Source of the DNA: a virus
Taxonomy: Duplodnaviria > Heunggongvirae > Uroviricota > Caudoviricetes
IMG/VR virus record: IMGVR_UViG_3300045988_156243
Direction: 5' to 3' (one strand)
DNA length: 48,634 bases
This document shows, one piece after another, positions 1,465 to 40,483 of the stretch. The position numbers were made by a program, and so were the translations under genes. The notes under the pieces are model-generated. The model was not told the DNA's origin. It searched no databases and saw only the letters and a program-made list of their open reading frames with translations. Numbering within the stretch: the first letter of the stretch is position 1; the number at the start of each line of letters is the position of its first letter.

Positions 1465-1976
1465 TGATGGCCCCCGTCATTTCTGGTGCTTTTCACCGTG
1501 CGGCTTCTTAAAAACCTGCCATCACGAACAACAGACACTTCTCGTTTACCCAACCTCATTTCACGGCGGTAACATTCAGAAAATGCCTCGTCCGGCATCA
1601 TATAAATGCGACGCTTCGCCTCCGTATCCAGAAGGGAACGGCTTGGGGTTACATATAAAAACGACTCATCAATAGGGACAAAACCACGAGCAAGAATTGC
1701 TGGCAGAATGCCAGGAAGAACGCAGAAAACAGCGCCACGATGCAGCAACATCTGGTACTCCATGACCTCCGTTATCCCCGTGACCACTGTTACGGTGTCA
1801 CGTCTGTTACGGCTGGCAACCAGTCGCTGCACACGTCCAATTTTCTGATCTACAGATAGATGTTTGCTATCGTTATCAATATGATCGATAACAAATCCTT
1901 TAATCGTTTGATCAAGGTAGTGCACCACCTGCGATTGAATCTGGTGATTATCACCAAAGAAGGCCAGAATCATCAT
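1461..1976 (-). CDS. Hypothetical early protein
   Basis: 171 aa ORF, ATG start overlapping the upstream gene stop. Confidence 0.4.
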   Translation of the reverse strand: MMILAFFGDNHQIQSQVVHYLDQTIKGFVIDHIDNDSKHLSVDQKIGRVQRLVASRNRRDTVTVVTGITEVMEYQMLLHRGAVFCVLPGILPAILARGFVPIDESFLYVTPSRSLLDTEAKRRIYMMPDEAFSECYRREMRLGKREVSVVRDGRFLRSRTVKSTRNDGGHQ

Positions 1977-2467
1977 TCCTCAAGCCTCCCAAGTGCTGAA
2001 CGCCTGGCGTTGCTAATCTCCTTATGAATCAGCTCGATATCGCTGGAATCTTTATTCTTAAGCTCCAGCACGGTAATCGCATCACGAACCTCTGAAACGG
2101 TTACGTGTGAGTGTTTCCAGCGAGCAATGAATCGCGGACCGCGTAGATTGCAACGCTCCGCAGGCATCCCCAGCTCAGAGAAAACCGCTTTCAGCCTTGA
2201 TAAGCAGTTAACAGGGAGATTCCCTTTGATCTTGTTCTGCCGAACCGATGTGCCATCGCTACGCTGGCGCTGACGTTCGGCAAAATCTGCCGCCCATTGC
2301 TGGACGTTAATCCGGCCTTCCGAATACGCCACCAGCAGCGTCAGGTTATCCGCACGAGGGAATCTCTCGAAGCGATACCAGGCACCAATCAGTGATGACG
2401 TAAAGCCAAACTTTCTGGCAACACCAATTTGGCCTCCATTTTCGTCAACCCACTCCTGAAAGGTCAT
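1973..2467 (-). CDS. Cro/YdaS-like HTH early regulator with C-terminal extension
   Basis: 164 aa; N-terminus MTFQEWVDENGGQIGVARKFG matches Cro/YdaS-type HTH starts; divergent from the CI-like gene across an operator-rich spacer. Confidence 0.5.
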   Translation of the reverse strand: MTFQEWVDENGGQIGVARKFGFTSSLIGAWYRFERFPRADNLTLLVAYSEGRINVQQWAADFAERQRQRSDGTSVRQNKIKGNLPVNCLSRLKAVFSELGMPAERCNLRGPRFIARWKHSHVTVSEVRDAITVLELKNKDSSDIELIHKEISNARRSALGRLEE

Positions 2468-2485: not shown

Positions 2486-2501
2486 AACCACGATATGTGG
2501 T
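2486..2501. promoter_or_regulatory. Operator-like palindrome aaccacgatatgtggt
   Basis: AACCAC-N5-GTGGT inverted repeat in the cI/cro-like intergenic region. Confidence 0.45.
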
Positions 2502-2506
2502 ATTAA

Positions 2507-2522
2507 AACCACATATCGTGAG
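2507..2522. promoter_or_regulatory. Operator-like site aaccacatatcgtgag (degenerate half-site)
   Basis: Second copy 5 bp from the first; one half-site deviates. Confidence 0.35.
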
Positions 2523-2588
2523 TTTTTCAATGGGCGAAACAAAAAATAACCTTCTATTTGTGGTCCACCTCTCGTCTTACCATGTGAA

Positions 2589-2604
2589 AACCACTAAATG
2601 TGGT
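2589..2604. promoter_or_regulatory. Operator-like palindrome aaccactaaatgtggt
   Basis: Third copy, about 38 bp upstream of the CI-like start, followed by tataaa. Confidence 0.45.
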
Positions 2605-2641
2605 AATGTATAAATAACCCACCATTCACGATTGATGAGAC

Positions 2642-3298
2642 ATGAAAAGCAACGACGAGAACATCAAGAAAGAAATAGGTCTGCGCATTCAGACTCTACG
2701 GAAACAATCCGGCATGACTGCCGGAGATCTCCAGCAAGTCACTGGAATAGGCTTAAGCACCTTGCAGAACTATGAGGCCGGATTAAGACAACCATCTATA
2801 CCTGCCATCAAGAAAATCGCGCACGCCCTGAAAGCATCAGCGCCTTATATCGCGTGCTTAACAGATAACCCGTTCCCACCCCAGAATACTAACGCTCCTG
2901 TTATTCCTGGGCTTGTAGCTATAAAAAATGACATAGCATCGCACGCCGGAGAAAAGCCAGTGCTGGCGATAGAACAGGAGATTCTACGAAGCAAGAACAT
3001 CAACCCATCGTCTCTGTCAGTTCTCCAGAGCAACGATGAGTTAATGTCACCAACAATATCCCCTGGCTCCCAAGTCCTGATTAATACAGACGATACAGAG
3101 ATTCATGAGGGGATCTATGCCCTTGAAGACAGAAATGGCCTGGTTGTTTTGAGGCACTGTAGAGTCATACCGGGTGACAATGCTGTTATGCTGTCAACCG
3201 AAAGGGATGCTGAAATGAACACTAAGCATCTGAATAACGAGGAATTTAAGCGTTATAAAGTTCTTGGCCGCGTAGTTAGTGTTGTCAACTGGTTATGA
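2642..3298 (+). CDS. CI-like repressor (HTH_XRE N-domain plus S24 LexA-like C-domain)
   Basis: 218 aa; N-terminal HTH (GMTAGDLQQVTGIGLSTLQNYE); C-terminal MSPTISPGSQVLINTD and KVLGRVV resemble the S24 Ser/Lys autocleavage motifs. Confidence 0.85.
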   Translation: MKSNDENIKKEIGLRIQTLRKQSGMTAGDLQQVTGIGLSTLQNYEAGLRQPSIPAIKKIAHALKASAPYIACLTDNPFPPQNTNAPVIPGLVAIKNDIASHAGEKPVLAIEQEILRSKNINPSSLSVLQSNDELMSPTISPGSQVLINTDDTEIHEGIYALEDRNGLVVLRHCRVIPGDNAVMLSTERDAEMNTKHLNNEEFKRYKVLGRVVSVVNWL

Positions 3299-3339: not shown

Positions 3340-3356
3340 AACCACATTTTGTGGTT
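3340..3356. promoter_or_regulatory. Operator-like palindrome aaccacattttgtggtt (could also act as a weak terminator hairpin)
   Basis: Same AACCAC-N5-GTGGT pattern downstream of the CI-like gene, flanked by an A-run and a T-run. Confidence 0.35.
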
Positions 3357-5568: not shown

Positions 5569-5651
5569 TGTATTAGTACAACGACGTTATGCTGAAAGGA
5601 CCGCGAATCCGATCAGCACGAAAGAACCGTCCTCAAAAGGACGGTTTTTTT
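5549..5651 (+). ncRNA. Candidate ~100-nt sRNA (antitoxin-like), ending in an intrinsic terminator
   Basis: Possible promoter TGGACT-16 bp-TAAGAAT just upstream; terminator ccgtcc-tcaaaa-ggacgg plus T7 at 5627-5651; no credible ORF. Confidence 0.4.
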
Positions 5652-6205
5652 GTTTCTCCCCCTTCCTTCCCAAATGATTCAAATGTTAATGAGAGAGAAT
5701 CATTTGATATGTTCGATTTAGCGCCGTTATCGACCCAATTTCTGTATGCTTCATCACAACAGTACCTTACAGCAGTTGGAGTAACAGGGATGCCGCCCCC
5801 AAATGAGAATCCCATTGAGCTAATGCTAACTCTTTCGAATGGCCTATTTCTCAATGCTTCAAACCCCTTGCTATTAAAGTAACGCAGCATCAGAGGTAAA
5901 AGGTTATCCTCGTCCTGACTGATTGTTCCAGGGAAAAAGTAGTAACCATAACGGTTAAATTCGGGAATAAGATTTTCTACCAATGACATGAAATTCACTG
6001 GAGTAATATTAAGGGCTGTGAAAGCACCAAAAAGGGCGTCAACTGTTAATACAGACTGCCCGTTCTCTATCTTTGTCCATGCGTTTGGTGTTTTTCCAGC
6101 AGCTTGAGCCAGCACTCCTTGATGCACACCTCTTTCTAGCCTAAGTTCTTTTATGATCATTAGGTGAATTGTTGAAAAACATGAGTTTTTTGACTGTTCA
6201 ATCAT
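5633..6205 (-). CDS. HTH_XRE-family transcriptional regulator with C-terminal domain
   Basis: 190 aa; N-terminal HTH (ELRLERGVHQGVLAQAAGKTPNAWTKIENGQ); divergent from the antirepressor operon. Confidence 0.7.
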   Translation of the reverse strand: MIEQSKNSCFSTIHLMIIKELRLERGVHQGVLAQAAGKTPNAWTKIENGQSVLTVDALFGAFTALNITPVNFMSLVENLIPEFNRYGYYFFPGTISQDEDNLLPLMLRYFNSKGFEALRNRPFERVSISSMGFSFGGGIPVTPTAVRYCCDEAYRNWVDNGAKSNISNDSLSLTFESFGKEGGETKKPSF

Positions 6206-6339: not shown

Positions 6340-6356
6340 ACCCACACTATGTGGTT
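6340..6356. promoter_or_regulatory. Operator-like palindrome acccacactatgtggtt upstream of the antirepressor operon
   Basis: AACCAC-N5-GTGGT pattern 23 bp upstream of a TTGACA hexamer at 6380-6385. Confidence 0.4.
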
Positions 6357-8799: not shown

Positions 8800-9072
8800 T
8801 CATTTGATCCCTTGTTCCAATTCTGCCGACACTTTAACCTTTTCCCATACAAGGGTTTGCAGCCTTAACAGAATCGCATCTTTATCAAGGTGTGAAAGAT
8901 CCTTCACCATATCGTCAAACGACAGAACGCGAATGGCCATCTCAATGACCCTCGGCGGCTCCCCCTTCTCATATCGCTTATATGTAGCCAACGATATCCC
9001 AAATTCTTCGGCGGCTCGCTCCTGCGTCCAGTTCATCCCACGACGCCATAATTTCAATTCATAACCCGTCAT
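8800..9072 (-). CDS. Small HTH DNA-binding protein
   Basis: 90 aa from ATG at 9072 (ORF-track start is TTG); HTH-like WTQERAAEEFGISLATYKRYEKG; palindromic operator just upstream. Confidence 0.55.
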   Translation of the reverse strand: MTGYELKLWRRGMNWTQERAAEEFGISLATYKRYEKGEPPRVIEMAIRVLSFDDMVKDLSHLDKDAILLRLQTLVWEKVKVSAELEQGIK

Positions 9073-9100
9073 AGCACCCTCCTCGCACAATATTAACACT

Positions 9101-9127
9101 CGCAAAGTGTCAAAATGACACTTTGCG
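9101..9127. promoter_or_regulatory. Perfect 12-bp inverted repeat cgcaaagtgtca-aaa-tgacactttgcg (operator candidate)
   Basis: Read directly; lies 29-55 bp upstream of the HTH gene ATG. Confidence 0.55.
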
Positions 9128-9135
9128 CATTGTGT

Positions 9136-9516
9136 TTACTTAACGAGGAATAAAAATGGTTTATTGTTCGGCGGTGTAATCGGGGCTGGCTCGCTTTTGC
9201 TCATGCGATCAGTGTACCAGGCCAACTCCTTGTCAAAGTAAGCCTGATTAAAATAGGCCATGAATGTAGTTTCAAATCCATAACGACCGCTAATACGCAG
9301 CATCTGATTGCCGTTCTCTGTTTCCAGATATACCTGGGCACGTTCCTGATTCTCCTTCAGCCAGGTTAAAGCCTCATCGCATGAGGACACACGATACTCA
9401 TCATCGTAGCAGTCATCGATGCGGCTTGAGGAAGAACGGCAAATCACGCCAACAGAACCAGCCAGGATAGTTTGAATTTTAAGGAAAGCGTTTTTGCGGA
9501 TTTTAATCATGCTCAT
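9136..9516 (-). CDS. Hypothetical protein driven by cassette copy A
   Basis: 126 aa; ATG at 9516 inside the conserved leader. Confidence 0.5.
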   Translation of the reverse strand: MSMIKIRKNAFLKIQTILAGSVGVICRSSSSRIDDCYDDEYRVSSCDEALTWLKENQERAQVYLETENGNQMLRISGRYGFETTFMAYFNQAYFDKELAWYTDRMSKSEPAPITPPNNKPFLFLVK

Positions 9517-9628
9517 CGGGTTATCTCCGGTTTAACCAGGGCGGGTATCGCTCGGTTTCGGGTATAACCTTAGGAAATTTTTTCCCACCTGTAAAGCACT
9601 TTTTATATAAATCTATAATTATATAAGC
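9517..9628 (-). promoter_or_regulatory. Conserved promoter-leader cassette, copy A
   Basis: About 105 bp near-identical to 41655-41770 and to 48585-48634 plus 1-58; TTTACA-17-TAAGGT, upstream AT-rich box, and RBS ggag before the ATG. Confidence 0.55.
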
Positions 9629-9629
9629 A

Positions 9630-9656
9630 CAAAAAAGCCCCTTTGCAACAGGGGCT
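9630..9656 (-). terminator. Intrinsic terminator of the toxin-antitoxin operon
   Basis: Hairpin agcccct-ttgcaac-aggggct with a U-run on the minus strand. Confidence 0.6.
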
Positions 9657-9671
9657 TATCATTCGTTCTGA

Positions 9672-9971
9672 TCAGATGTTAAACGCTATTCGTTTTCCTG
9701 TGGGAAGCTCAACATCCAGGCTTAATTTGCCTCCCATAGCTTCAACGTAACGCTTTAATGTCGCCAGCTTTAAATCATTTCCGCGCTGCTCCAGCTTTGT
9801 TACTGCTGGCTGGCTTATACCCATCGCCTCAGCAACCTGTTTTTGTGATAACTGGAGTTCTTCACGCATCATCTGCAAGCCGACCTCAAGAATCATCTCA
9901 TCTGCCATTTCTTTAATTCGCGCCTGGCTTTCCGGTGAACGGCTGGCAATCGCCTCATCTAATGTTCTCAT
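9672..9971 (-). CDS. HigA-like antitoxin (HTH_XRE)
   Basis: 99 aa; HTH LQLSQKQVAEAMGISQPAVTKLEQ; sits immediately downstream of the toxin gene. Confidence 0.75.
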   Translation of the reverse strand: MRTLDEAIASRSPESQARIKEMADEMILEVGLQMMREELQLSQKQVAEAMGISQPAVTKLEQRGNDLKLATLKRYVEAMGGKLSLDVELPTGKRIAFNI

Positions 9972-11349: not shown

Positions 11350-11780
11350 TTATTTCGTCCTTATATAAATTGATTTTGTATAGTTCGAAACGCGCCGTTT
11401 CGAAAAGGATGATCAGGCTACTCCATGCCTCCGGCAAGTGCCGGAGGAGGTATATTTGAGCGTAGCGACTCGAACCGGCGCGAGCTTTAGCTCGCTGCAA
11501 GGGCGAACATATTCACAGGCAAAGCCTGCGTAAGTTAAATAAAGAAAGTTTTAATAAAAGAAAGTGATTTTGCATTTATTTGTTTAGTGCATCTATTATA
11601 AAAAACCATTTGCATATACATATCAAAACTGTGGATAACTTGATTAGTTGATACCTGTAAAGGCGATATTTTTGCTGAGTTCAGGTTTAGAGAAAATTAA
11701 TTTAGCTTGTTTTTTGAACAGCTATTTTTTTGCGACGTAGATAATCCTCCGGTAAAACCGGATTCATCATTCAGGTGAGT
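11350..11780. other. Candidate plasmid replication origin region downstream of repA
   Basis: AT-rich; DnaA box tgtggataa at 11630-11638; GC hairpins at 11385-11405, 11428-11448 and 11465-11485. Confidence 0.45.
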
Positions 11781-12628
11781 TAATGTTGGAGTGATTTCCA
11801 GGTCTTTCTTAGCCTGTTATAACGCTGCTCAACGAGGGATCGTAAATATGCAAGGTCAGCACCAGGATACATGCCATCAGCAAATTCCTGGCTAACCTCT
11901 CTAGTGATTTGATGACGAAGTTCGGCCTCTCCCTTTTCCTGAACAAGACGCGCAGCTCTCTCCGCTGCTTTCTGTTTTGCCTTTATCTCTCTGGCCGTCT
12001 TCCTCTGACGCCATACATTCTCCATCTGCTCCTGAATAACAATACGCTTATAATCAGCCTCCGTTATCGCTTTTTTAAGCCGTTCGCTATTCTTCGCATT
12101 GAAGTAATTAAGTTTCTGGCTAACCGCACGTCTCCATGCTTGTTCAGTAATACCAACGGTTTCCAGCAGTTGATCACGAATCTCTATTTTCGCTGGCCAA
12201 TACTGTTTATTCACCCGATCCCAGCGACGTTCATAATCAATAAAACCTAACGCTTTCAGTTGCGACAACGCCCTTGTACAGCGCGTTATAGACTTGTTCC
12301 CAGCTTCGGATACGGTAGACAGGCCGCAAAAATCAGCCAACGCCTCAGCACTAGCCAGAACCCGCTTAGAAATGATGTTTACATGGTGCAAAATCGCAGC
12401 GATCACAGCATTAATCGCCCGACGACGATGCTCGTTTATCCGGCGCTTCCGCTCTGACGGTTGATTAACGTAGAACGCAACCTCACACGTAAGATCACGC
12501 CCATTAATGCGCTGTAAAGCATCAGATAACACCAGCGGCAGCTTGTGCGTATGGTGCTTTGGAGGCTGGAACTCCGGCGACAAATTACAAACGTAAGCTG
12601 AACGTAGAGACGGCATTGGTCTATCCAT
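11780..12628 (-). CDS. repA: Plasmid replication initiator, IncFII RepA1-like
   Basis: 283 aa from ATG at 12628 (ORF-track start is TTG at 12790); SITRCTRALSQLKALGFIDYE resembles the RepA1 motif SITRATRAL as I recall it. Confidence 0.8.
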   Translation of the reverse strand: MDRPMPSLRSAYVCNLSPEFQPPKHHTHKLPLVLSDALQRINGRDLTCEVAFYVNQPSERKRRINEHRRRAINAVIAAILHHVNIISKRVLASAEALADFCGLSTVSEAGNKSITRCTRALSQLKALGFIDYERRWDRVNKQYWPAKIEIRDQLLETVGITEQAWRRAVSQKLNYFNAKNSERLKKAITEADYKRIVIQEQMENVWRQRKTAREIKAKQKAAERAARLVQEKGEAELRHQITREVSQEFADGMYPGADLAYLRSLVEQRYNRLRKTWKSLQH

Positions 12629-12673
12629 ATGTTCGCTCTTGCGTCCACGGAAAACCAACGTATAATGGGAGTT

Positions 12674-12752
12674 GTCGAGGCGCCCATGGATATTGTTGTT
12701 GGTTTTCCGTGGATGTCGCAAGAAGCCCGCAGATTTATCTGCGGGCTTTTTG
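12674..12752 (+). ncRNA. Candidate antisense RNA to the repA leader (CopA-like)
   Basis: Plus-strand promoter TTGCGT (12639-12644), 17 bp, TATAAT (12662-12667); terminator agcccgcag-atttat-ctgcgggct plus T5 at 12722-12753; 16-bp inverted repeat arms 12644-12659 and 12698-12713 around the repA RBS. Confidence 0.4.
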
Positions 12753-12794
12753 TTTCCATATCTGGTCACTTTCCAACCAGACACCCACAATCAT

Positions 12795-12811
12795 AACCAC
12801 GTTACGTGGTT
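12795..12811. promoter_or_regulatory. Operator-like palindrome aaccacgttacgtggtt upstream of the repA leader
   Basis: Same AACCAC-N5-GTGGTT pattern as the cI/cro operators. Confidence 0.4.
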
Positions 12812-12940
12812 TTAAGAGAACTCTACCACAACACTTTCGGTCATGCACGAAGTCTCTCACTGATCGAACGATAATCCACCAGTAAAAGGATCTAAATTGG
12901 ATCTCGTTTTGCGAGCATCATACTACTGGCCTAACTCCAG

Positions 12941-13495
12941 TCAATGATTCCCAGCCGGAAACCTGCGGTAAAGCGTGGATAAGGTAACATCGAAGATAAT
13001 CGCTATCCGCTTACGTGAAACACCATTCGCAATAAGCCTTCCGATCTGTTCCCATTGCTCTGGTGCCAGCTTTGAGCGACGTCCTCCTATCCTGCCGTTA
13101 GCCCTTGCCACCGCCAATCCTGCACGCGTTCTTTCAATCATATTTTCCCGCTCCATCTCTGCGACTGCACTCAGCATCGTGTAGGCAAAGCGGCCAATTG
13201 AAGTGCTAATTTTTATCCCTTCCGTAATCGAAATAAACTCAATGTTGTTTGATAAAAAATGGTTAAGTAAATCAACAAGATGAATCAGAGAACGCCCCAT
13301 TCGGTCCAGCTTCCAGACAATAACCGTATCGCCCGGCCGTAGCACCTTAAGTAGCTTATCAAGCCCTGGCCGTTTTGATTTAGCACCGGATATTTTATCT
13401 TCAAAAATCCGGTCACATCCTGAACTCCTGAGCGCCTCCAGTTGTAATTCCAAATTCTGGTCAAAAGTTGACACCCTCGCATAACCATATTGCAT
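12941..13495 (-). CDS. Serine DNA invertase (Gin/Hin/Cin/Pin family)
   Basis: 184 aa; N-terminus MQYGYARVSTFDQNLELQ with catalytic Ser; C-terminal HTH; adjacent to an invertible tail-fibre segment. Confidence 0.9.
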   Translation of the reverse strand: MQYGYARVSTFDQNLELQLEALRSSGCDRIFEDKISGAKSKRPGLDKLLKVLRPGDTVIVWKLDRMGRSLIHLVDLLNHFLSNNIEFISITEGIKISTSIGRFAYTMLSAVAEMERENMIERTRAGLAVARANGRIGGRRSKLAPEQWEQIGRLIANGVSRKRIAIIFDVTLSTLYRRFPAGNH

Positions 13496-13562
13496 ACTTT
13501 CTAAACCGCGATTGTTGCTAAAAGCGGGAAAAAATATCGTTCAGACGACACAGAGGCAATTC

Positions 13563-13590
13563 GCAAAAACCTCGGTTTGCAGGAAACGGT
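13563..13590. repeat. Recombination site (gix-like), boundary of invertible segment
   Basis: aaaaacctcggtttgcaggaaac; closely resembles the Mu gix site as I recall it. Confidence 0.7.
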
Positions 13591-14824
13591 AAATCAGGCT
13601 TCTGGCGCATTACAAAAAAACCAGAACGGCGCGGATATTCCTGATAAGGATCGCTTCCTGAGTAACATTAATGTTTACAGCAAAGGCGAGGTGGATAAGA
13701 AAAAAGGAATGCGGCAGTACGTATTTAACGCGCCGTCTAATGCTGTTGGTGGAAAGTGGTATCCAGTTATTTTCCAGCGTTCCACAGGCAGCACTGGCGA
13801 GCTGGCTTCCAGAGTGATTATAACGACCACATCTGCCGGTGGTAATTACGAAATGAATAACTGCGAATTCAATGGAATGGTAATGCCTGGTGGCTGGACT
13901 GATCGTGGTTCATATGCGGCAGGTTATTTTTCGACGTATCAGACTAATGAGCGCGCAATCCACTCCATTGTAACAAGCCTTAAAGAAGATGATGTATGCA
14001 GCGTTTTTTACGTTGAAGGCAGGGCTTTTCCTGTGCGGGTTTCTGCTGAAGAAGGGCTAACGGTTATTGTTCCAACTCAGGATTATACCGTCGGTCAAAC
14101 AACATATAAGTGGGGAGCAACTAATCCCGCGACAGAAAGCACGAACGCACAAGCCATTCTGGATTTTAACAATGGGCGAGGGTTTTATTGTTCTCACTCA
14201 ATATTCGGTATTAATGCCATTTTTAGCGGAAATCTGGGGATTGGAACGGCTAATGCCCTGGGTGGAAATTCAATAGTTTTAGGAGATAACGATACCGGGT
14301 TTAAACAAAATGGTGATGGGGTGCTGGATGCTTATGCTAATGGTGTGCATGTATTCCGCTTTATAAATGGTTCAGCAAGATCATTAAAGGGTATTCAGGC
14401 TGGGGAAAGTAAGTTCTTCACACTTTCAAGTGCAAATACCGCTGCCCGTAATGCATCATTTAACTTGTGGGGAAATTCGTCAAGACCAACTGTTGCAGAG
14501 CTTGGTGATGATTCAGGCTGGCATTTCTATAGTCAGCGAAATACAGATAACTCGGTGATATTTGCTGTAAACGGTCAGATACAACCAAGCAACTGGGGTA
14601 ACATTGATTCCCGATATGTGAAAGATGTTCGGCTTGGCTCACAGCAATATTATGGTGTGAACAACTGGCAAACATGGAACTTCCAGTGCCCTTCAGGTCA
14701 TGTATTGTCTGGTATAAATGTTCAGGATACAGGGTCCAATTCTGCCGATAATATAGCTGGCGTTTATTACAGACCCGTTCAAAAGTATATAAATGGCACC
14801 TGGTATAATGTAGCGAGCGTTTAA
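13577..14824 (+). CDS. Alternative tail-fibre C-terminal cassette (Sv'-like), silent orientation
   Basis: Frame reads through the gix-like site (NLGLQE versus YLGLRE in the expressed fibre); C-terminus [12 protein letters not shown] parallels the expressed fibre end. Confidence 0.7.
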
Positions 14825-21116: not shown

Positions 21117-22118
21117 TTAATACCCATTAATTACTCTTCGGACATCAATCGAGGTGGTATAACCACTAGCCCCAATTGAATGCACAGCTTTCGATATAAG
21201 ATATTTTCCAGAAAATGAACCGAATCCGTCAAGATTTATAGTTACACCAGCAACCAATCTGGTGTCTCCAACCAATACTAAAGATCCTGTATTTTGATAT
21301 CTATTTTTAATCCGCAAAGCAGCCTTTGCCTTACGTTTTGCTTCATCTAAATTAGCTACCAGTTTTCTTATCTTAAGATTCGACCCTTCTTCTACGGATG
21401 GATCTACCCAAGTATACGAAAGCGACTTTCTTTTTTTAGGTACGCGATATTTGCACGTGCAACTTTTATACAAATCTGTAGATTGTATGCTAAAGCTATA
21501 TCTGATTATCTCATCAATACCTAACGTAAGCGTAGCGATAGGATCTTTTTGCTCAAACATCTCTTGAGCAAATATTATTAATTGGCTATCAGTGACCTTT
21601 AACGACAACCCTTCATCCTGGCAAAGTCGATGGAGAAATTTTAAATCGCTTTCCTCCATTTGATCTTCACGCGCATAATATGGATTACTATCACCATCAA
21701 TAAGAAACAACAGTTCAAGGTTAGCTAATTTAGCTATAGAAGTTGCTATATCTTTAAGAGTTGTTTTTTCCCATGCATTACTTTTTAAATCACGTCTAAT
21801 GCCTGATGAAACAGGAACAGAAACAGCAGTTACCTCAACAACAGAAGGTGGTCCAGAGCAAGTTATGCCATCTACCTGGAATTTCCCGCACTCAAGGACG
21901 ATTTGATTTATAGGCTTAAAGCTCAAATCAATAAAATCACCCTTTTTAGGTGTCCAGTCTCCAGACCATTTCCCATCATCATTTTTTAATATAATAGAAA
22001 TATCATCGACCTGACCATCTTCATTATCTGTATAAGACATTGACAAAACATCAGGTGACATATGAGCGGTAATATTTACATTCTGATATATAACATCAAA
22101 AAGCGTTTTACGTAACAC
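21117..22118 (-). CDS. Tail protein gpD-like (GTG start)
   Basis: 333 aa; immediately downstream of tape measure and the X-like gene. Confidence 0.65.
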   Translation of the reverse strand: MLRKTLFDVIYQNVNITAHMSPDVLSMSYTDNEDGQVDDISIILKNDDGKWSGDWTPKKGDFIDLSFKPINQIVLECGKFQVDGITCSGPPSVVEVTAVSVPVSSGIRRDLKSNAWEKTTLKDIATSIAKLANLELLFLIDGDSNPYYAREDQMEESDLKFLHRLCQDEGLSLKVTDSQLIIFAQEMFEQKDPIATLTLGIDEIIRYSFSIQSTDLYKSCTCKYRVPKKRKSLSYTWVDPSVEEGSNLKIRKLVANLDEAKRKAKAALRIKNRYQNTGSLVLVGDTRLVAGVTINLDGFGSFSGKYLISKAVHSIGASGYTTSIDVRRVINGY

Positions 22119-39938: not shown

Positions 39939-39962
39939 CAAAACCACCCGCAGGTGGTTTTA
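39939..39962. terminator. Bidirectional intrinsic terminator
   Basis: Perfect hairpin aaaaccacc-cgca-ggtggtttt flanked by A and T runs. Confidence 0.6.
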
Positions 39963-39989: not shown

Positions 39990-40397
39990 CTAATCAGATA
40001 AACCAAACTTCTTCTTTGCCAATGACTTGAGAAGTTCTACACCAACATCCTTCATAACAGCCAATGGCTCATTGCTAATTTCTTTTAGTCTAGCGAAAAC
40101 ATCTTTGCTCTCTAGTGCACAGGCAAAATCCTGTCCCTCTGTAGTCAATCTAATATCTACATCAACAGTCCTCATTCCTGCAAAAAAATTAACATAGCCA
40201 AGACGCAGAGGATCACGCGTTTCCATCTTCATATTGCTGATAAAACCTTGCTCAATCAATTGCATATAATGAAACATGCCCTTTTCTGAGGCTATATCAA
40301 ACCCCGCATCTCTTAGTTGATTTACTGTTATGAACGTGCTTTCTGAATCCAAAAACACAGTCAGCATCTTTTTTAGATAATCTAGATCGGTGCGCAT
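39990..40397 (-). CDS. Hypothetical protein
   Basis: 135 aa from ATG at 40397 with aaggagg RBS (ORF-track start is TTG at 40433). Confidence 0.45.
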   Translation of the reverse strand: MRTDLDYLKKMLTVFLDSESTFITVNQLRDAGFDIASEKGMFHYMQLIEQGFISNMKMETRDPLRLGYVNFFAGMRTVDVDIRLTTEGQDFACALESKDVFARLKEISNEPLAVMKDVGVELLKSLAKKKFGLSD

Positions 40398-40483
40398 TTT
40401 ACCCTCCTTAAATGGAACGCAAATGTTACACAACCTTTAAAAAAGACACATTGTTTTATTTATGCCTCATTTTAATCGACCAA

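Follow-up and report, generated by a model that had tools for sequence, protein, structure and literature searches.

Phage-plasmids reconcile the low and stable copy number of a plasmid with the rapid amplification of a phage, and the N15 group is the only well-studied case in which an immunity repressor sets plasmid copy number. In phage P1, one immunity repressor, C1, acts at many dispersed operators, one of which controls the lytic replicon repL; the plasmid replicon of P1, with its iteron-controlled repA, is not under C1. In N15 and phiKO2, the CB repressor occupies OL operators at the promoter of repA, and this binding both represses the gene and reduces the copy number of the prophage; CB lacks the residues for LexA-type autocleavage, and the N15 operators have the form T-A-N10-T-A (PMC4997575). 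In plasmid R1, repA is read from the constitutive promoter PcopB and from a downstream promoter, PrepA, that is about 90% repressed by CopB (PMC5717011).

The stretch of DNA analysed here (48,634 nt, about 48 kb; hereafter, the window) is a complete or nearly complete E. coli phage-plasmid of the myovirus type. Upstream of its repA gene lies a perfect 17-bp palindrome (Table 1), which an earlier note had proposed to be an operator linking repA to phage immunity. The link is supported in silico by the concentration of the motif, the conservation of its half-sites, and its co-variation with immunity type, and we consider it rather likely that the palindrome is the operator of the phage-plasmid's own CI-like repressor, through which repA would be controlled.

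The control proposed for the window would follow the same logic as that of N15, phiKO2, and PY54, namely, a prophage repressor at repA operators. However, N15 has two OL operators beside cB, whereas the window has a single site about 9.5 kb from cI, and this site lies in the leader of an IncFII-family repA with a candidate antisense RNA. The window has no protelomerase and no linear genome, its operator sequences are unrelated to those of N15, and the RepA protein of N15 is a different, large multifunctional protein. The likeness to R1 and R100 lies in the replicon itself: an IncFII-family RepA and a leader with an antisense-RNA-like stem-loop and a terminator. The window also resembles R1 in its predicted layout of two tandem promoters, the downstream one, P2, with a candidate repressor site. 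In contrast to R1, there is no copB between the putative promoters of the window, where about 100 bp of non-coding DNA hold a sole short ORF that is not conserved, and the proposed repressor is CI, which is encoded elsewhere; furthermore, RepA of the window is ~30–40% identical to the classical IncFII RepA of R1 and R100 over part of its length. The candidate operators resemble lambda OR and OL in that they are 17-bp dyads whose half-sites are conserved and whose centre varies, grouped between divergent cI/cro-like genes, with extra sites elsewhere. However, their sequence and the repressor are unrelated to those of lambda at a level detectable by BLAST, and the extra sites of the window are proposed to serve plasmid functions (repA and probably par) rather than early lytic operons. 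Unlike in P1, it is the plasmid initiator itself that carries a candidate operator in the window.

Across positions 11500–14500, the window shares 99.6% identity with Yersinia phage vB_YpM_39 and ~98% with the 48.5-kb plasmid carried by E. coli ATCC 25922, with ~71–72% of the stretch aligned in each case, and numerous further non-mobilizable E. coli plasmids of ~48 kb give matches of the same kind. The gene content of related records comprises a virion with a contractile tail, a Pin/Hin invertase with its invertible tail-fibre segment, ParA, an antirepressor, toxin-antitoxin pairs, and a single replication initiator, RepA. Of 5,426 complete E. coli genomes, 71 carry the repA leader, on plasmids in every case. 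No protelomerase is annotated in the relatives. Because no replication initiator other than RepA is annotated in the related plasmids, RepA may serve both lifestyles. Contig scans with RepA as the query found no relatives. Our literature search found no paper describing this phage-plasmid family or its repA control, and searches on vB_YpM_39 and pDSJ01 yielded nothing relevant. The element pSLy3 is distinct, being a member of the SSU5 supergroup. In four relatives assembled independently (L014, L017, L019, and L020), the assembly stops 1.9–2.0 kb downstream of the repA stop, which points to a repeat common to them or to a physical end of the genome there.

Table 1. Positions of the genes, candidate regulatory elements, and operator-like sites in the window.
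Feature	Positions	Strand	Basis or description
Divergent Cro-like early gene, 164 aa, phrog_7452; possible second binder	1973-2467	-	Profile assignment
Switch region with candidate operators 2486-2502, 2507-2523, and 2589-2605 and one-sided site 2549-2565	2486-2605		Motif scan
cI-like immunity repressor gene; product is the proposed binder	2642-3298	+	HTH_3 and degenerate S24-like C-terminal domain (Pfam)
Candidate operator between cI and the orf124-parA operon	3340-3356		Conserved in L011 and L012
Operator-like site preceding the ash/antirepressor operon, 1 mismatch	6340-6356		Scan allowing at most 2 mismatches
repA, IncFII-family replication initiator, 282 aa, ATG at 12628	11780-12628	-	Pfam IncFII_repA
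CopA-like antisense RNA candidate	12668-12756 (~12672-12752)	+	TATAAT -10 at 12661-12666, stem-loop, terminator hairpin ~12718-12753
Proposed CI site at repA, perfect 17-bp palindrome AACCACGTTACGTGGTT	12795-12811		AACCAC-GTAAC-GTGGTT on the repA strand
Predicted promoter P2, extended -10 TGgTAGAGT (hexamer 12825-12820)	12828-12820	-	Conservation
GATCC-N6-GATCC pair between P1 and P2	12888-12903	-	Conserved
Promoter-like P1, TTGACT-16-TATGAT	12944-12917	-	Consensus scan, 10/12 consensus matches

The product of repA matches the Pfam model PF02387 (IncFII_repA) with an E value of 1.1e-43 and a score of 150 bits against a cut-off of 22.9, and its homologue in related plasmids is annotated as RepA. 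The antisense RNA candidate in the leader folds to -41.2 kcal/mol (z = -5.8), and its terminator stem shows compensatory changes between clades; an Rfam scan of the repA leader returned no family over the threshold and no match to CopA. A conserved tap-like leader peptide was not seen. In a conjugative-plasmid relative with VirB-type transfer genes (L016; RepA 63% identical), two tandem HTH_3 genes directly upstream of repA (8968–9745) occupy the copB position, and this relative has no alignable P2/operator slot. The clade with 60% RepA identity (L014, L015, and L017; 9516–10004) has an extra 162-aa ORF with weak similarity to IncFII_repA; the stop of this ORF overlaps the repA start (ATGA), and the repA leader precedes the ORF, not repA itself.

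The two putative promoters, P1 and P2, would both point into the repA leader. P1 overlaps the 3' end of the pin gene, which is on the repA strand and ends at 12941, and corresponds to TTGACT-16-TATCAT in the Salmonella and Klebsiella relatives and to TTGACG-16-TAGAAT in the 60%-RepA clade. P2 was not detected in the consensus promoter scan, which reported P1 only, and its -35 region is poor; its promoter function is predicted from the extended -10 motif TGnTA[G/A]AGT, which is kept in all three clades at 7–9 nt from the operator slot (8 nt in the window). Transcription from P2 is predicted to start near 12813, with the palindrome at about +3 to +19, which would be the classical position for repression if P2 is a promoter; relative to P1, from which transcripts would start near 12910, the palindrome is at about +100. 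The earlier note had placed the site just upstream of the repA leader and antisense region. It is indeed upstream of the antisense target, but it lies inside the leader of the P1 transcript, ~100 nt downstream of P1. A TATGAT -10 hexamer at 12795–12790, overlapping the end of the operator, was rejected as the main promoter: it has a poor -35 region, and it is not conserved, reading TACGAT in L025 and L032 and TAAGTA in L007. The GATC pair between P1 and P2 has its two members 11 bp apart in every clade (L011, L007, L020, L015, and L021) despite diverged surroundings, and it may provide Dam/SeqA-dependent control of repA transcription after replication.

A scan of the window for AACCAC-N5-GTGGT gave matches at 2486, 2589, 3340, and 12795, the last two on both strands. 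These are 6 strand-matches versus 0.01 expected, and none of 100 shuffled sequences reached 6. Allowing at most two mismatches added 2507–2523 (two mismatches) and 6340–6356 (one mismatch); the whole-element scan recovered every site previously said to share the motif of the palindrome (three within 2486–2604, one at 3340–3356, and one at 6340–6356), together with matches at 21837 and 39674 that are probably due to chance. Beyond repA, occurrences of the motif fall mainly at the cI/cro-like switch and at two further sites close to promoters. Between the divergent cI and Cro-like genes, there are three full sites and one one-sided site (ACCTTC TATTT GTGGTC), and the top strand-collapsed 6-mers of this switch region are ACCACA and AACCAC. 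The flanks lengthen the consensus to TTAAAACCAC, and the extended half-site is common to the palindrome and the sites at 2486 and 2507. The sequence at 39940–39961 (AAAACCACCCGCAGGTGGTTTT) was rejected as an operator: its arms resemble half-sites, but it forms a hairpin of the terminator type, with a loop of 4 nt and with an A-tract on one side and a T-tract on the other, and it has the appearance of an intrinsic terminator acting in both directions next to the gene at 39990–40433, which it follows. A search for LexA boxes gave one chance-level match, away from all regulatory regions studied here.

The relatives of the same immunity type (L011, L012, and L006 from Salmonella, L020 from Klebsiella aerogenes, and L007 and L033 from Yokenella) have 80–85% identity to the window in RepA, ~76% in the leader, and 60–66% in CI, with an identical CI recognition helix (GIGLSTLQNYEAG). 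In these relatives, both AACCAC and GTGGTT are exact and the five-base centre of the site varies (GTAAC, GTTGT, GATGT, GATGC). Among the close window-type relatives, the palindrome is identical in 21 of the 21 examined, and SNPs occur 20–30 nt away.

A second clade, in which RepA is 60% identical and the genes are in the same order, comprises Citrobacter L015, IMG/VR L021, and several metagenomes, and its immunity is of a different type (type B). The type-B CI is only 27–30% identical to that of the window, and in its recognition helix, GIPRSTIQNYE[A/S]G, the first two residues differ (GIPRST vs GIGLST). The commonest non-A/T 6-mer of the L015 and L021 switch regions is ACTACA/TGTAGT, and the operators in the type-B switch region have ACTAC/GTAGT versus ACCAC/GTGGT in the window. 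The repA slot, which is positionally homologous in an alignment of the three clades (7–9 nt after TGnTA[G/A]AGT), reads GACTAC-AAAA[C/T]-GTAGC in type B; the L015-type candidate site that is the counterpart of the window site is GACTACAAAACGTAGCA. Occurrences of the 9-mer TGACTACAA are limited to the switch region (three in L015 and two in L021) and a single copy at the repA slot; the window has none. In L015, L021, L014, and L019, ACTAC-N5-GTAGT is found, with at most one mismatch, both at the slot of repA and in the switch region, and it has no match in the window, whereas the reciprocal scan with ACCAC-N5-GTGGT shows the opposite pattern. Five further loci of the 60%-RepA clade, which are without cI, have the same ACTAC/GTAGC slot with a varying spacer. 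In type B, the complete co-variation was seen in two loci, L015 and L021, whose contigs include both cI and repA. The repA site thus appears to track the specificity of the element's own switch-binding proteins.

Other immunity types were compared in the same regions. In Serratia relatives whose CI has the PRST helix, the switch region contains a perfect ACTACAATTTGTAGT; Serratia loci L038 and L039 lack a repA within 10 kb. The correspondence between switch motifs and the region upstream of repA is weak or ambiguous in L040 (Pantoea) and L041, which represent two more CI types. A longest-shared-substring test of the switch region against the region upstream of repA reached significance only in L015 (0 of 199 windows), the result for the window under study being marginal (13 of 496); the test is too noisy, both regions being A/T-rich. 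GTGGTT half-sites persist in type B at fixed places (16773, 18836, and 19611 in L015; 13200, 13980, and 14003 in L021), located within the switch region, downstream of cI, and ahead of the Rha/antirepressor gene, and one type-B site is a hybrid, AACCAC-GAATT-GTAGTT. These half-sites suggest a second DNA-binding specificity common to both immunity types.

The candidate operator after cI has counterparts in L015 and L021 that take the type-specific form. A site of the element's own immunity type lies between cI and orf124-parA in all types examined (34524–34540 in L011, 18817–18833 in L015, and 13181–13197 in L021, in addition to the window); therefore, the partition operon is probably in the same repressor regulon as repA.

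The proposed binder, CI, matches PHROG 4 ("transcriptional repressor") over its full length. The Pfam S24 match of CI is below the threshold, and its S24-like domain has DELM where LexA-type proteins have G-x-S-M (GDSM), so that the catalytic serine, judged by eye, is apparently replaced. Because of this replacement, and because the antirepressor operon has its own operator-like site, induction is probably driven by the antirepressor, which was identified by Pfam and PHROG matches in the ash/antirepressor operon, and not by RecA. A BLASTP comparison of CI with an approximate sequence of the N-terminal domain of the 434 repressor gave no alignment. The Cro-like protein is 42% identical to its heteroimmune counterpart and may use the same sites as CI; since both proteins differ between immunity types, the binder may be CI, the Cro-like protein, or both. 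A second HTH_3 protein of 190 aa is encoded at 5633–6205, adjoining the site at 6340.

Binding by proteins of the immunity region could also serve another end. The bound palindrome might act as a roadblock or insulator that stops P1 transcripts, or read-through from pin and the tail-fibre genes, before they enter the repA leader in the lysogen. On the one hand, the co-variation fits this reading equally well, P1 is the sole site found by the consensus scan and lies ~100 nt upstream, and pin and the tail genes are on the repA strand; with P1 as the sole promoter, control would have to come from a roadblock at +100, usually a less effective mode. On the other hand, a single dimer site is usually a leaky roadblock, and a function of this kind leaves unexplained why TGnTA[G/A]AGT is conserved 7–9 nt upstream of the site in all clades. 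We regard the roadblock as unlikely. The second HTH_3 protein, the neighbouring Pin invertase, or a host regulator might occupy the site: the first is encoded beside the site at 6340, pin is directly upstream of the repA site in the window, and GTGGTT half-sites persist in the type-B loci. However, the repA slot follows the switch motif of each immunity type, which is not expected of a host factor or of Pin and excludes both as the binder. Relatives without pin beside repA keep the site, and L015 has no called homologue of the 190-aa protein and still has the slot; a binder of this kind is thus quite improbable. A Pin/hix recombination site was likewise rejected, as relatives without an adjacent pin retain the sequence and its half-site spacing is not that of hix/gix invertase sites.

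A reading without any protein, in which the palindrome forms an RNA or DNA hairpin of the repA leader (a processing, stability, or antisense-pairing structure), had been named as the alternative to an operator and proved weak. The sequence is able to fold (-8.4 kcal/mol for the window, -7.5 kcal/mol for Salmonella), and one base pair stays complementary through the C-to-T and G-to-A changes of type B; however, two outer pairs are broken in type B, which leaves only a 4-bp stem (-4.7 kcal/mol, z = -1.4). With a start at P2, the palindrome would be transcribed only in part, and no T-run follows it on the repA strand. Nor does a hairpin explain why the arms always equal the motif of the element's own switch region or why the same motif occurs in non-transcribed promoter regions. 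That the repA slot follows the switch motif of each type is a strong argument against a mere hairpin, and we give this reading almost no credence.

We return to the palindrome as a proposed operator of CI controlling repA, for which we infer binding by CI, activity of P2, repression, and an effect on copy number. In the lysogen, that is, in the plasmid state, bound repressor would shut P2 and could partly block transcripts arriving from P1; RepA would be kept low and fine-tuned by the CopA-like antisense RNA. Just after infection, when there would be no repressor, the release of P2 would let RepA increase and replication accelerate. The same would happen after induction, with the repressor inactivated, probably by the antirepressor of the element.

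A natural deletion derivative bears on this model. The plasmid pCREC-544_3 (L042, NZ_CP024829.1) is a 32,182-bp circular deletion derivative that has lost the parts corresponding to 37.9–48.6 kb and 1–5.5 kb of the window. It is without cI, the Cro-like gene, parA, and the early genes, and it keeps repA, the repA operator, and the antirepressor-side site. This fits a negative and non-essential regulator, with CI dispensable for maintenance; alternatively, a co-resident helper element or an assembly artefact may account for it. The read depth of pCREC-544_3 would report copy number without CI.

A broader reading, which we offer tentatively, would make the immunity repressor the master regulator of plasmid life in this widespread family, whose phage-plasmids occur in E. 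coli, Salmonella, and Citrobacter. It might control the IncFII-type repA, the partition operon, the lysis-lysogeny switch, and the antirepressor; with RepA as the only initiator, loss of CI might turn a copy-controlled, antisense-regulated replicon into a lytic replication engine. Under this scenario, a phage repressor would have replaced CopB via an inserted operator slot that was re-tuned with each change of immunity.

The control logic itself is known from N15 and R1. What would be new here is a phage immunity repressor in the CopB slot of an IncFII-type, antisense-controlled replicon, in a common family of enterobacterial phage-plasmids. This suggests that the solution known from the N15 group arose on a quite different replicon, one of the IncFII type with antisense RNA control. 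Because a close relative of the window resides in the quality-control strain ATCC 25922, the hypothesis is testable with standard strains. If true, it would bear on phenotypes that depend on copy number, such as cargo gene dosage, stability, and induction dynamics, and it would help to explain the joint evolution of immunity and incompatibility.
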